Shown one piece after another: positions 6,781 to 17,097 of a stretch of DNA of 64,000 nucleotides; the first letter of the stretch is position 1, and each line of letters starts with the position of its first letter. Position numbers and translations under genes: made by a program. The notes below the pieces were generated by a model. That model ran no database searches and was not told the DNA's origin. It saw only the letters and a list, made by a program, of their open reading frames with translations. The stretch comes from Alphaproteobacteria bacterium (GTDB lineage: Bacteria > Pseudomonadota > Alphaproteobacteria > Bin95). Location of the stretch: NCBI GenBank assembly GCA_963665325.3, contig OZ224045.1, forward strand, positions 1,472,001 to 1,536,000, in the 5' to 3' direction.

Positions 6781-6886
6781 CCTCATCCTGAGTAGCGCCC
6801 GCGCGAGCGGGCGCGTATCGAAGGACCGTTCCGGTGCCGGAAACGCCTCCCTCGATACGCGGCTGACGCCGCTACTCGGGATGAGG
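6781..6886. repeat. Palindromic intergenic repeat type A (CCTCATCC...GGATGAGG)
   Basis: Inverted ends; similar copies in opposite orientation at 13105-13210 and 59335-59440. Confidence 0.88.
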
Positions 6887-7241
6887 GAAGTGGAGCGGGC
6901 CAACGGCAGTGGCCGCGTCGCCAGAGCGGAATCCATTTGAATTGAACCGCAACCGGAACCGAACCCAAAACCGTCACCCCGGCCCCCGAGCCGGGGTCCA
7001 GAACCGCCTTCGAAACCTGGTCAGGCCCCGGTAGACTGGACCCCGGATCTCCGCTCCGTCCGGGGTGACAATTGAGGCTCCGCGTTCGACTTCGTTTCAA
7101 CTCGAACGGACCGTGCTCTAATCGCGATGAGGGGGAAGTGCAGCGGACCAACGGCAGTGGCCGCGTCGCCGGAGCGGAGTCCATTCGAATTGAACCGCGA
7201 CTGGAACCGAATCCAAAACCGTCACCCCGGCCCCCGAGCCG

Positions 7242-7508
7242 TGTGTGGACGCCTCCCTGGATGCAAGCAGTTTTTTCGGCTTGGTCGGGCCTATGCGGTC
7301 AGGCGGAGTCGTGTGTCCGGTTTCCCTTGTGCGGCACTTGAGTTGCCGCGGGCCAGTATGGAGATACGCGGATCGGGTCCATATCGGGGTCATGCGCTCG
7401 CGGCGCGCCGGCTCAGCCTGGTTTTCCCGATCCCGTCTCATTGACCGTTTGCCCTTACCCCTTGCCTCGGCCTGCCTGCATCCTCCGACGGCTCGCCGCA
7501 CCGCCTTC
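7242..7508 (-). ncRNA. Putative seekRNA/bridge RNA region downstream of the IS1111-type transposase
   Basis: ~265 bp non-coding end with 7-nt matches to both strands of the target (7385-7391, 7408-7414); exact RNA ends unknown. Confidence 0.65.
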
Positions 7509-8540
7509 TCAGGCGGCTGCGGGAGCCCGGTAGGTCTCCTTCTTCACGGCCAGCGCCCACAGGATGCGCGCCATGCGATTGGCGAGCGCGACGGCGACCA
7601 GCTTGCGCTTCCCTGGCTTGCTCGCCAGCAGGCGCGCCAGCCAGGGATCGTTGCACTTGCCCCGGCGGATGGCGTTCTGGATCACCGACATCGCCCCGAC
7701 CACCAGCAGGCGGCGCAGGTCCTTCTGGCCCATCTTCGAGATCTTGCCGAGCCGCGGTTTGCCGGCTGTACTGTGCTGGCGGGGCGTGAGGCCGAGCCAG
7801 GCAGCGAAGTCGCGCCCCTTGCGGAAGGTTTCGAGCGGCGGGGCCAGGGCCTGGAGCGCCAGCGCCGTGACCGGCCCCACCCCCGGCACGGTCATCGCGC
7901 GGGCCGCCTCCTCGTCCTCGCGCGCGGCGGCCCGCAGCGTCCGGTCCAGCTCTCTGACCTTCCCGTCCAGCTCGGCGATCCGTTCCAGCAGCAGTGCCCC
8001 CATCTCGTGCGTCAGCGCCGGCAGAGACGCCCCCTCTTCGCCCTCAAGTGCCCAGGCCAGACGTGCCACATGCGCCGGCCCCTTGGGAGCTACAAGGCCG
8101 AACTCCGCTAGATGGCCCCGCAGCGCGTTGATCGTCTGCGTGCGCTGGCGCACCAGAAGCATGCGCACCCCCAACTGCATCGCCCCCGCCTGGCTCTCCT
8201 CGCTCTTCACCGTCACGAAGCGCATGGTCGGGCGCTGCGCCGCCTCGCAGATCGCCTCCGCGTCCGCCGCGTCGTTCTTCTGCCGCTTCACATAAGGCTT
8301 CACATAAATCGGCGGGATCAGACGAACCTCATGGCCCAGCTTGCCGATCTCGCGGCCCCAGTAATGCGCACCCCCGCACGCCTCCATCGCAACCGTGCAG
8401 CGAGGTTGAGACAACAGAAACGCCAGAACCCGACCCCGCGACAGCTTGCGACGGAACGCCACCGAGCCGTCCGAATACGCGCCGTGCATCTGAAAGCTGT
8501 TCTTCGACAGGTCCACCCCGATGATGCTAACCTCCTTCAT
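7509..8540 (-). CDS. IS110 family DEDD transposase/recombinase
   Basis: IIGVDLSK, VAMEACG, KNDAADAEAI, FAAWLGLTPRQHSTAG (catalytic Ser). Confidence 0.96.
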   Translation of the reverse strand: MKEVSIIGVDLSKNSFQMHGAYSDGSVAFRRKLSRGRVLAFLLSQPRCTVAMEACGGAHYWGREIGKLGHEVRLIPPIYVKPYVKRQKNDAADAEAICEAAQRPTMRFVTVKSEESQAGAMQLGVRMLLVRQRTQTINALRGHLAEFGLVAPKGPAHVARLAWALEGEEGASLPALTHEMGALLLERIAELDGKVRELDRTLRAAAREDEEAARAMTVPGVGPVTALALQALAPPLETFRKGRDFAAWLGLTPRQHSTAGKPRLGKISKMGQKDLRRLLVVGAMSVIQNAIRRGKCNDPWLARLLASKPGKRKLVAVALANRMARILWALAVKKETYRAPAAA

Positions 8541-9266
8541 TGGATGCCTCCTTCCCATTGGGGGTTTCAACAACACCACCATGGCACATTGCGATGCCGT
8601 CGGATGGAGGCGTCCACCCTATCGGGGTCCAGAACCGCCTTCGAAACCCGGTCGAGCTCCGGTAGTCTGGACCCCGGATCTCCGCGCTCCGCTCCGTCCG
8701 GGGTGACAATTGAGGCTGCGCGTTCGCCTTCATTTCAACTCGAACGGACCGTGTTCTAATCGCGATGAGGGGGAAGTGCAGCGGGCCGACGGCAGAGGCC
8801 GCGTCGCCGGAGCGGAATCCATTTGAATTGAAGCGAAACTGGGACCGAACCCAAAGCCGTCACCCCGGCCCCCGAGCCGGGGTCCAGAACCGCTTTTGGA
8901 ACCTGGTCAAGCCCCGGTAGACTGGACCCCGGATCTCCGCTCCGCTCCGTCCGGGGTGACAATTGAGGCTGCGCGTTCGCCTTCGTTTCAACTCGAACGG
9001 ACCGTGTTTTAGAGCGGAATTCATTCGAAGTGAACCGCAACCGGAACCGAACCCAAAACCGTCACCCCGGCCCCCGAGCCGGGGTCCAGAACCGCTCTCG
9101 AAACCTGGTCAGGCCCCGGTAGACTGGACCCCGGATCTCCGCGCTCCGCTCCGTCCGGGGTGACAATTGAGGCTGCGCGTTCGCCTTCATTTCAACTCGA
9201 ACGGACCGTGTTCTAATCGCGATGAGGGGAAAGGGCGCCAGGCCGATGGCAGGGTTGCCGTCGCTA

Positions 9267-10589
9267 TCAGAACTGGCGTACGAAGCTGAGCTCGGCGCGG
9301 TCGCGTTCATAGTCGAGCGCCTGGGCGTTGGTCTCGCGCTGTTCGTTGATGAGCGAGAGGCGCGGGCTGAAGCCGAGCACGGTGACGGCGCGGTTGTGGA
9401 CCGAGAGCGAGAGGATCCGGGTCTTGTCCTCGCGGGGCTGCCGGTCGCGCGTGCGGTGGCGGAAACCCCGGCCTTCATAGTCCGTCCATACCATCGTCGC
9501 GCGCGCGCCGACGGTGAAACCCAGCGGCAGGGCCAGCGTTGCGCCAAGGCTGGCCGTCGGCCCGTCGGTGCGCCAATCCTCCTCCTCCGCGCGGCTCCAG
9601 TTCCAGCCGGCGTTTCCGCCGACGCGCAGGATCGGCAGCGCCACCCAGTTCGCGCCGAGCGAAACTTCGCCCACCGGGCCGTCCAGCCAGTCGCAGTCCC
9701 GGCAATTTCGTTCGCGAAGCCCGGCGCGACCCTGCACGGAGAGGCGCGGGGTCAGTTGTCGCGCCGCTTCCAGACGAAGGCCGTACTGGTCGGTCTCGGG
9801 TGTGCCGCTGCTCCATTGCCGCTGCACGGTGGCAAGCAGGCTGCCTTCCGTACGGGCGTCGATGAGCCAGCGCGGCCCGAGATAGGCGGACGCGAACTGC
9901 CGGTCGAACAGGCCGCCCTTGTATTCGCGGACCGAGGCGTCCGCCCCGGAGCGCAGGCGCCAGCGGGCCGCCAGTGGATACTGGTATTCGCCGCCGCCCC
10001 ATACGGAGAGGCCGAGCCCGGACTTCGGCGCGGTTTCCGCACCGCGGAGGAAGGGCAGCCGGCCCCAAGGCGTGTCGAGCCAGATTGTCCGGTTGTCTGA
10101 GGCGGTATTGAGATTGCTGTCGGGCGCCACGGCGAAGCCGAACCGCGCTTGCCAGCGCCGCCTTGCGCGCATGATATTCAGGAAACGCTGGATATTGGCT
10201 GCGACCGCAGGTGGCAGGTTCCCGGCCAGCGCGTGTTCGAAGTGCCGACGCGCCAGTGTGTCCTCCTCCTTCATGAAGAAGGCGCGGGCGAGTTCGAGCC
10301 GCACCCGCACAAGCTCCGGGCGGTCGATCAGGATCGACCGGAAGACGGAGATCGCTTCATCCAGCCGGGCGTCCCGCGCCTCCGGCGAGGCGGCTCCATG
10401 GGCGGCCTTGAGAGCGTTCATGCCGATCTTGAACTTGAGAGCGGCGCCGAAATCGGCCGCGGCATCCGGAGGCGTTGCAGGTCTTTCCTTCGCTGGGGCC
10501 GCAGTTTGCGCGAAGCCACCGGCCGGAGCCAGCAGGACAAGCAACAGCGGGAGGAACGAAAGTAGGCGAAGGGACCGGGGCGGCTTCAT
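9267..10589 (-). CDS. Slam-family (surface lipoprotein assembly modifier, type XI secretion) outer-membrane protein
   Basis: Signal peptide, TPR-like VRVRLELARAFF..ARRHFE, APDSNLN barrel start, C-terminal ELSFVRQF beta-signal. Confidence 0.82.
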   Translation of the reverse strand: MKPPRSLRLLSFLPLLLVLLAPAGGFAQTAAPAKERPATPPDAAADFGAALKFKIGMNALKAAHGAASPEARDARLDEAISVFRSILIDRPELVRVRLELARAFFMKEEDTLARRHFEHALAGNLPPAVAANIQRFLNIMRARRRWQARFGFAVAPDSNLNTASDNRTIWLDTPWGRLPFLRGAETAPKSGLGLSVWGGGEYQYPLAARWRLRSGADASVREYKGGLFDRQFASAYLGPRWLIDARTEGSLLATVQRQWSSGTPETDQYGLRLEAARQLTPRLSVQGRAGLRERNCRDCDWLDGPVGEVSLGANWVALPILRVGGNAGWNWSRAEEEDWRTDGPTASLGATLALPLGFTVGARATMVWTDYEGRGFRHRTRDRQPREDKTRILSLSVHNRAVTVLGFSPRLSLINEQRETNAQALDYERDRAELSFVRQF

Positions 10590-12844: not shown

Positions 12845-13470
12845 GTCGCCCCGGCCCTCCAATCGTCGTCCCGGACTTGATCCGGGACCCAGCACTGCCG
12901 GCGCAGCCCGCAGGGGCCTCGACAGGCTGGACCCCGGCTCGTTGGCCGGGGTGACAAGTAGTAGTTTGCCGGAGTGACAAGTAGCGGGTGGCCGGGGTGA
13001 CAGGTAATACCGGCAGCGGTCGATCGGAACCGATAGCGAGGGGCCCCTGCCGTCGGCCCCGTCCTCTTTCCCCTTATCCCGAGTACCGGCGTCAGCCGTT
13101 TCCCCCTCATCCCGAGTAGCGGCGTCAGCCGCGTATCGAGGGAGGCGTTTCCACCGGTGGTACGGTCCTTCGATACGCACCCGCTGGCGCGGGCGCTACT
13201 CAGGATGAGGAGAGGACCGGGACGCCGAGCCAGGCGGACGCCCGCGCTCTCCGCCTTGCCGCCCCCCACGCCCCCCTTTAGTCGCCCCGGCCCTCCAATC
13301 GTCGTCCCGGTCCTCCAATTGTCGTCCCGGACTTGATCCGGGACCCAGCACTGCCGGCGCAGCCCGTCGGGGCCTCGACAGGCTGGACCCCGGCTCGTTG
13401 GCCGGGGTGACAAGTAGTAGTTGGCCGGGGTGACAAGTCCGGGGTGACAAGTAGTAGTTGGCCGGGGTGG
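12845..13470. repeat. Composite REP-like cluster: two copies of GTCGTCCCGGACTTGATCCGGGAC...GGACCCCGGCTC, 23-bp tandem units TTGGCCGGGGTGACAAGTAGTAG and one type A palindrome
   Basis: Direct repeats ~12850-12960 and ~13300-13420; block 13006-13230 recurs at 59267-59460. Confidence 0.88.
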
Positions 13471-16946: not shown

Positions 16947-17097
16947 TGTCACCCCGGCCAACTACTACTTGTCACCCCGGACTTGCCTGCCCTCGCGAAG
17001 GCGGGGGAGCCGGGGTCCAGCCTGTCGAGGCCCGTGCGGGCTGGGCCGGCAGTGCTGGGTCCCGGATCAAGTCCGGGACGACAATTGGAGGGCCGGA
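16947..17097. repeat. Inverted copy of the 13300-13470 REP-like cluster
   Basis: GTCACCCCGGCCAACTACTACTTGTCACCCCGGACTTG...CTGGGTCCCGGATCAAGTCCGGGACGACAATTGGAG. Confidence 0.88.

Follow-up and report, generated by a model that had tools for sequence, protein, structure and literature searches.

An IS1111-group insertion sequence with predicted RNA guides in a REP-like repeat of an alphaproteobacterial genome

Here, we describe an insertion sequence (IS) found within a 64,000-nucleotide stretch of DNA from an alphaproteobacterial genome (Alphaproteobacteria bacterium, GenBank assembly GCA_963665325.3, contig OZ224045.1, positions 1,472,001 to 1,536,000 of the forward strand). We refer to this whole stretch as the window, and positions are counted from its first letter. 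The element is very probably an intact and recently active member of the IS1111 group (IS110 family), with a DEDD transposase that would be guided by an RNA from the 3' non-coding end of the element. The observations that carry this interpretation are the anatomy of the element, its insertion at the same site in three of three copies, the covariation of guide segments with both targets and donor ends, and a conserved structure in the non-coding end. By analogy with family members studied experimentally, we infer that the element expresses this RNA, that the transposase binds and requires it, and that the element passes through a circular intermediate carrying a junction promoter.

In the proposed pathway, a seekRNA or bridge RNA would be made from the 3' non-coding end and act as the partner of the DEDD transposase. 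A stem closed by a conserved CCA:UGG helix would open into an internal loop, in which the 5' side (7416-7408) would pair across the CG core with the target's top strand, and the 3' side (7391-7385) across the same CG core with its bottom strand. A downstream module would consist of a stem-loop followed by ACACACGA at 7316-7309; because this segment matches the sequence where the IS ends join, it would serve to hold the circular donor. The element would then enter GAGC-CG-GGGTCC, one arm of a REP-like (repetitive extragenic palindromic) repeat, by recombination at the CG core, in one orientation and without duplication.

The boundaries of the element can be read directly from the plus strand, where the left junction is GAGC-CG-TGT-GTGGACGCCTCC (7236-7256) and the right junction GGAGGCGTCCAC-CCTAT-CG-GGGTCC (8606-8630). 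Since CG stands at both junctions of the split GAGC-CG-GGGTCC, the IS interrupts a 12-mer at a CG present on both sides, just as the original prediction for this DNA had read it. The sequence cannot assign this CG to either side, and we let the IS begin with the core CG at 8624-8623, following the convention of PMC11187229. There is no target duplication: joined at the single shared CG, the flanks restore the empty 12-mer. In the orientation of the transposase gene, a 7-nt extension, CG ATAGG (8624-8618), precedes the left subterminal inverted repeat, and a 3-nt extension follows the right one (Table 1). Partridge and Hall are said to have described, in 2003, a 3-bp right extension in agreement with the one found here.

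The non-coding DNA is distributed unequally, with 267 nt downstream of the transposase gene (7508-7242) versus 84 nt upstream (8624-8541). Published accounts give as features of the IS1111 group a 7-bp extension beyond the left repeat and no target duplication (PMC11187229), subterminal inverted repeats of 7-17 bp (PMC11208160), and a long non-coding region downstream of the transposase gene (PMC11187229, PMC11208160). The element in the window agrees in repeat length, left extension, lack of duplication and long downstream non-coding end, as well as in the order of its guides (see below).

The host genome, assembled as five contigs (5.58 Mb), contains three copies of the element on contigs C1, C3 and C4, and these are 100% identical over 1387 bp. 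All three lie in the context ...CACCCCGGCCCCCGAGC-CG-GGGTCCA... and in one orientation (3/3). One copy differs in sequence beyond GGGTCCA, and the copies are therefore separate insertions. Copies at unrelated sites would speak against guidance, a point already raised in the original prediction; what is found is a single site and a single orientation.

The transposase gene encodes 343 amino acids in an open reading frame running from 8540 to 7512 on the minus strand, with its stop codon at 7511-7509. A longer reading frame from 8582 is also listed, and the start was set at 8540 because relatives start at the same MKEV/MGQV residues. The protein matches the Pfam models DEDD_Tnp_IS110 (PF01548, E 4.2e-13) and Transposase_20 (PF02371, E 3.9e-21) above their curated cut-offs, and the NCBIfam model NF033542, 'IS110 family RNA-guided transposase', with 303.6 bits against a cut-off of 140. 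Its length falls inside the range of 330-350 aa given for IS1111 transposases in PMC11187229. Sequence similarity to the solved structures is limited to the C-terminal part (ISCro4, E 2.7e-9; IS621, E 1.5e-7). The IS1111-type assignment of the original prediction thus stands, on the Pfam and NCBIfam matches, the 12-bp subterminal inverted repeats and the long downstream non-coding end, and it is by these structural features that we place the element in the IS1111 group.

How new is the element? The closest protein found, that of the relative L010, is 90% identical, and the best match in a protein search of a plasmid collection is 63.6% identical and annotated merely as 'IS110 family transposase'. 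No named ISfinder elements were recovered from the plasmid collection in protein mode, ISfinder itself not being searched. The element is an unnamed new member of a published and already annotated kind, not a new kind. The original prediction had spoken of a new RNA-guided recombinase with a CG core; of this, the unnamed member survives, but the kind has been published and annotated, and a CG core recurs in 18 of 58 relatives.

Evidence for the guides comes from comparison among relatives, as the original prediction had proposed. The relatives comprise 80 loci, out of the 465 of 573 candidate stretches that encode relatives. Together with the window copy and a copy on contig C5, these gave 82 records, of which 61 could be anchored by both inverted repeats (the 21 unanchored records were dropped). 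Requiring full flanks, no N and a repeat score of 11 or more retained 49 of the 61 (12 dropped) and left 47 distinct guide/target combinations. The sample is diverse: the 50 elements with flanks fall into 34 target classes, and 58 relatives have the core dinucleotides TG (36), CG (18) and AG (3). The consensus structure was based on 42 of 43 distinct ends, the truncated L060 being left out, and a map of alignment columns covered 42 sequences.

On the minus strand of the window copy, the exact match of guide 1 is GAGCCGG (7414-7408) and that of guide 2 is GACCCCG (7391-7385), and both span the CG; they lie, like the donor segment, exactly where the original prediction had placed them. When the non-coding ends of the relatives are aligned, each element shows in its guide 1 columns its own right flank and core in reverse complement, and in its guide 2 columns its own left flank and core. 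In nearly all relatives, guide 2 is followed by an AU that equals the dinucleotide with which the left IS end starts. In transposase orientation, the window element has GAGCCGG and GACCCCG as guides 1 and 2 for the target GGACCC-CG-GCTC, L010 has GAUCCGG and GGCCCCG for GGCCC-CG-GATC, L021 has GACCAGCCG and CUUGAGCG for CTTGAG-CG-GCTGGTC, and L019 has GAGGCUCCA and GAGUUG for GGAGT-TG-GAGCCTC. In L019 the core is TG instead of CG, in the target and both guides alike.

The covariation can be expressed in numbers. The longest exact match of guide 1 averages 6.85 nt with its own target versus 3.71 nt in 2076 cross pairs, and a match of 7 nt or longer occurs in 27/47 own pairs versus 23/2076 cross pairs. 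For guide 2, the averages are 6.87 versus 3.90 nt (again 2076 cross pairs), with matches of at least 7 nt in 28/47 versus 23/2076. In the column map, positions 7391-7387 carry the same bases as positions -5 to -1 of the left flank in 32-39 of the 42 sequences (about 13 after shuffling), and position 7386 equals the first core base in 40-41. For guide 1, position 7411 complements right-flank position +1 in 26/42; here the map is less well aligned because the register shifts between subfamilies. Read 5' to 3', the segment that is complementary to the top strand comes before the one complementary to the bottom strand; both overlap the insertion point, and this is the order published for IS1111 seekRNAs (PMC11187229).

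Two individual relatives may be mentioned here. L116 (G004:C693; only 74% DNA identity), whose guides are AGAGCCGGGGU and GACCCCGAU, is inserted in CTGGACCC-CG-GCTC, which is the target of the window element. The copy on contig C5 (L004, G000:C5:113347-114745; 73% identical) has a target loop with a tandem duplication of the inner hairpin and guide 2, and its guides fit the flanks of this copy, which are different (AATAA-TG / CTCCACGA).

The donor segment, ACACACGA (or TCGTGTGT when read on the plus strand), likewise varies with the element that carries it, so that all three segments singled out by the original prediction covary with targets or ends across the relatives. In 43/47, it agrees with the junction of its own element over 7 nt or more. 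In the column map, position 7313 varies with the middle one of the three right-extension bases in 42/42 sequences, and position 7311 with the core in 40-41/42. The segment also tracks rare variants, namely AGA-TG in the C5 copy, ATA-CG in L021, AAA-TG in L069-L071 and ACG-CG in L073. A candidate partner, UCCAU, is complementary to ATxGG of the left end in 29/42 sequences versus 21.9 after shuffling; in the window copy it would form three Watson-Crick pairs and one wobble pair out of five, with the core unpaired.

The segments are set in a structure that is conserved among the relatives. The RNAalifold consensus contains 22 pairs, 15 of them with compensatory changes, and the share of paired cells is 95.0%, versus 83.1% after shuffling. 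None of 500 shuffles reaches any observed measure, and slid controls give 26-45%. The CCA:UGG helix joins 7421-7419 with 7381-7379 and alternates between A-U (21 sequences) and C-G (18). Both target guides fall in the internal loop between this helix and the inner hairpin, the 5' side being occupied by guide 1 and the 3' side by guide 2. In the consensus, the donor segment is unpaired and follows the second stem-loop; no closing helix is predicted around the donor segments. Folding of the window sequence by itself reproduces the outer stem and the inner hairpin. The placement of the guides in an internal loop, which the original prediction had named as a check, is supported by the comparative structure and not by the single-sequence folds, where guide 1 is partly paired.

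Several points weigh against an RNA-guided element of this kind, and they have to be set beside the covariation. The fold energies of 7508-7242, 7438-7364 and 7438-7296 are not better than those of shuffled sequences (z -1.56, -1.43 and 0.04), and the single-sequence fold draws part of guide 1 into a weak local hairpin of 5 bp that is not conserved. The basal helix of the second stem-loop keeps only two of its four pairs in the window copy, and Rfam gave no match over 6800-9300 at E values up to 1. Among the 47 elements, the exact match is at most 4 nt for guide 1 in 12 and for guide 2 in 7. The C5 copy has TG as its left core and TC as its right core, which speaks against a strict rule. In genome G003, nine copies (L120-L128) of a relative 78-79% identical all lie in CTGGGCCC-CG-G(C/A)TCAAGG; their guide 1 variants GAGC and GAUC, one base apart, occur in the target variants GCTC and GATC with pairing that is not strict, being exact at right-flank position +2 in only 4/9. 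In genome G024, 11 copies were fetched and 10 anchored, and guide 2 matches over at least 7 nt in 8/10 and guide 1 in only 3/10; some of these copies share flanks with L013 and L014 and are therefore not independent of the 80-locus sample. In these multicopy families, single mismatches and looser right-flank matches are tolerated. Could the matches then be by-products, arising by chance or from carried-along target sequence, with the transposase protein alone recognizing the site and the inverted repeats? The insignificant single-sequence folding and the poor guide 1 matches of several relatives fit this explanation, and 7-mers in a GC-rich stretch of 267 nt can match a GC-rich repeat by chance. 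However, the same aligned positions change with the flanks across the 34 target classes, only about 1% of the cross pairs reach 7 nt, compensatory changes occur in the surrounding helices, and experiments on family members described in PMC11187229 found the RNA to be required and programmable. We consider it hardly credible that the matches are by-products.

A less drastic alternative accepts the target guides and denies the donor segment a function as a guide: the protein would read the ends through the subterminal inverted repeats, and a short seekRNA would suffice. For ISEc11, PMC11187229 describes the short seekRNA as sufficient and leaves the role of the long form open, and for this reason the need for a donor segment is uncertain here as well. 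The weak statistics of the left-end partner and the lack of a closing helix around the donor segments point the same way. On the other hand, the segment follows its own right extension and core in 40-42 of 42 sequences, rare variants included, and we regard a donor segment without a guide function as rather unlikely. Finally, the element might be an immobile relic, for example through a change at the nucleophile motif. This motif, G(L)-P----S/T-G, reads GLTPRQHS-TA in the window transposase, and T-A is found only in the window copy and L010 (2/82), the others having TG (40) or SG (40). Also in keeping with a relic are the absence of an identical copy from the 30 other genomes searched (best DNA identity 82%) and the three occupied versus 22 empty sites in the host genome. 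Three identical copies on three contigs, with the reading frame open, argue otherwise, as does the occasional occurrence of T-A among IS1111 transposases noted in PMC11187229; loss of mobility is thus improbable. The preferred interpretation remains an RNA-guided IS1111-group element that has moved recently.

Table 1. Positions of the element, its predicted RNA features and the target copies within the window
Feature	Positions	Strand	Basis or remark
Whole insertion sequence, 1383 bp	7242..8624	-	Three 100%-identical genome copies; end mapping
Target half GAGC + core CG (right flank, transposase orientation)	7236..7241	+	Empty sites = GAGCCGGGGTCC
Target half GGGTCC (left flank, transposase orientation)	8625..8630	+	Junction, empty sites, other copies
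Left subterminal inverted repeat, 12 bp, GTGGACGCCTCC on minus strand	8606..8617	-	Repeat anchoring
Right subterminal inverted repeat, 12 bp	7245..7256	-	Repeat anchoring; then 3-nt extension ACA (7244-7242)
Transposase gene, 343 aa + stop	7509..8540	-	Open reading frame 8540-7512, stop codon 7511-7509
3' non-coding end, 267 nt, downstream of transposase gene	7242..7508	-	Sequence and alignment
Target-binding stem-loop, predicted short seekRNA core	7367..7435	-	Outer stem 7435-7426 with 7377-7367, CCA:UGG helix, internal loop
Guide 1, CUGAGCCGG	7408..7416	-	Complementary to target top strand: right flank, core, 1 nt of left flank
Inner hairpin between guides, GCGC...GCGC	7394..7406	-	Compensatory changes
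Guide 2, GACCCCG + AU	7383..7391	-	Identical to target top strand (left flank + core); 32-40/42 match per position
Weak candidate second donor guide, UCCAU	7358..7362	-	Complementary to left end ATxGG; 29/42 vs 21.9 shuffled
Second conserved stem-loop, just upstream of donor guide	7319..7354	-	Consensus structure
Predicted donor guide, ACACACGA	7309..7316	-	Identical to right IS end, core and first base of left end (circle junction)
Conserved TTGCAT, candidate -35 box of junction promoter	7261..7266	-	CTTGC nearly invariant in alignment of relatives
Empty target copy	6988..6999	+	Exact 12-mer
Empty target copy	8874..8885	+	Exact 12-mer
Empty target copy	9076..9087	+	Exact 12-mer
Empty target copy	12929..12940	-	Exact 12-mer
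Empty target copy	13385..13396	-	Exact 12-mer
Empty target copy	17007..17018	+	Exact 12-mer

Joining of the ends in a circle would create the hexamer CACGAT, and the candidate -35 box lies 17 nt upstream of it. Junction promoters have been described for the IS110 family (PMC11187229, PMC12288879), and by this analogy the conserved CTTGCA may be part of one.

As regards RNA, six RNA-library runs contain small shares of the stretch, and contigs only were examined in four of them. One contig of 163 nt (7324-7486), from a sponge metagenome RNA-library run, is identical to the window; it is not used as evidence of transcription. Other RNA-library contigs match only 7417-7461 and then diverge, and therefore come from relatives. 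Contigs also cover 8126-8588, the 5' part of the transposase gene, and these too are not used as evidence, since a contig from an RNA library reveals neither transcription nor transcript ends nor strand.

The target sequence is frequent in the neighbourhood of the element. All six unoccupied 12-mers of the original prediction are present at their positions (Table 1). With up to one mismatch, the window contains 13 matches to the 12-mer versus 1.25 expected, a number reached in 0/100 shuffles. Genome-wide, 22 exact 12-mers are empty, versus 2 for a reversed control pattern; judged by eye, 20 of the 22 lie inside palindromic REP-like elements and the other two in unrelated sequence. The REP-like element has the form GTCACCCCGG...GAGCCGGGGTCCA...CTGGrCCCCGGmTC...CCGGGGTGAC. 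The original prediction had suggested that such repeats serve as safe harbours, and their location in intergenic-looking sequence is consistent with that role.

Further observations concern the repeats and what is found in them. In the window between 6900 and 9200, the IS lies inside an array whose units, at least four in number, measure about 200-250 bp and contain one REP-like palindrome each. The right arm of the palindrome (GATCCGGGGTCC on the minus strand; for example at 7038, 8669, 8924 and 9126) is a one-mismatch copy of the target, and it is the exact target of the relatives L010 and L018. The three empty targets at 12870-13400 and 16950-17020 belong to a different repeat subfamily and are preceded by short tandem motif copies ending in TTGTCACCCCGG. 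Elsewhere in the genome, a left-end fragment of 180 bp (G000:C1:1733445-1733622; 91% identical) adjoins CTGGCCCC, and a solitary right-end repeat (G000:C2:66405) is followed by TCA-CG-GCTCGGGG. These two look like remnants of related elements in the same repeat family.

How does the element compare with known systems? According to PMC11187229 (Siddiquee et al. 2024), IS1111 elements make a seekRNA of 70-100 nt and a long form of 145-170 nt from the downstream non-coding region, and the seekRNA co-purifies with the transposase, is required and can be programmed. In Durrant et al. (2024; PMC11208160), 93% of IS1111 elements are predicted to carry a bridge RNA in their right end, often with the donor-binding bases in a multi-loop, and the arrangement predicted there is also seen in the window element. 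Like the window element, ISPa11, an IS1111 element of Pseudomonas aeruginosa (PMC11187229), occupies a fixed position in a REP sequence and has a seekRNA region downstream of the transposase gene with the same guide order; the two differ in target and host, and the RNA and activity are experimental in ISPa11 but inferred here. The pair ISEc11/ISXne4 is presented in PMC11187229 as a case of 'natural reprogramming', in which the stems are kept and two loop segments change with the targets. The same pattern is found among the window copy, L010, L018, L091, L116 and others, but here the retargeting is among variants of one palindromic repeat family (GAGC, GATC, GGACCC, GGGCCC) and not to an unrelated site.

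IS621, of the IS110 group (PMC11208160; Hiraizumi et al. 2024, PMC11208158), resembles the window element in its DEDD recombinase, its REP targets and a 2-nt core around which both strands of target and donor are recognized. By analogy, the AU after guide 2 may resemble the handshake bases of IS621 (PMC11208158). Unlike the window element, however, IS621 is described with its RNA upstream of the gene, a reversed guide order, a CT core and no long subterminal inverted repeats (PMC11208160, PMC11208158). ISPpu9 and ISPpu10 of Pseudomonas putida (PMC12288879) are also IS110-family elements that lie in REP sequences and recombine at an invariant dinucleotide. In contrast to the window element, ISPpu9 belongs to the IS110 group, and PMC12288879 describes it as having no inverted repeats, the dinucleotide AG, and the extra small RNAs Asr9 and Ssr9.

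The window element leaves knowledge of the mechanism unchanged. It provides one well-annotated natural example, with guides, donor segment, core and ends mapped, of a family that is of interest for genome engineering, and its relatives, 47 elements with 34 target classes plus two multicopy families, form a small data set, tolerated mismatches included, for the guide-target rules of the IS1111 group, which has been studied less. For annotation, the 267-nt tail is better described as a predicted functional RNA module than as a spacer, and the surrounding repeats as landing sites of the element. The palindrome family varies between GGACCC and GGGCCC on the left and between GCTC and GATC on the right, and guide variants one base apart coexist in one genome, in either arm variant. 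Perhaps, and we propose this only tentatively, an IS1111 radiation within one genus (74-82% DNA identity to the window element) has diversified both guides along with the variants of a single REP-like palindrome family, the T-A nucleophile variant of the window element being active. If so, the radiation would be a natural record of mismatch tolerance and of retargeting by point mutation, and the window element would show that a transposase with Thr-Ala at the nucleophile motif can be active.

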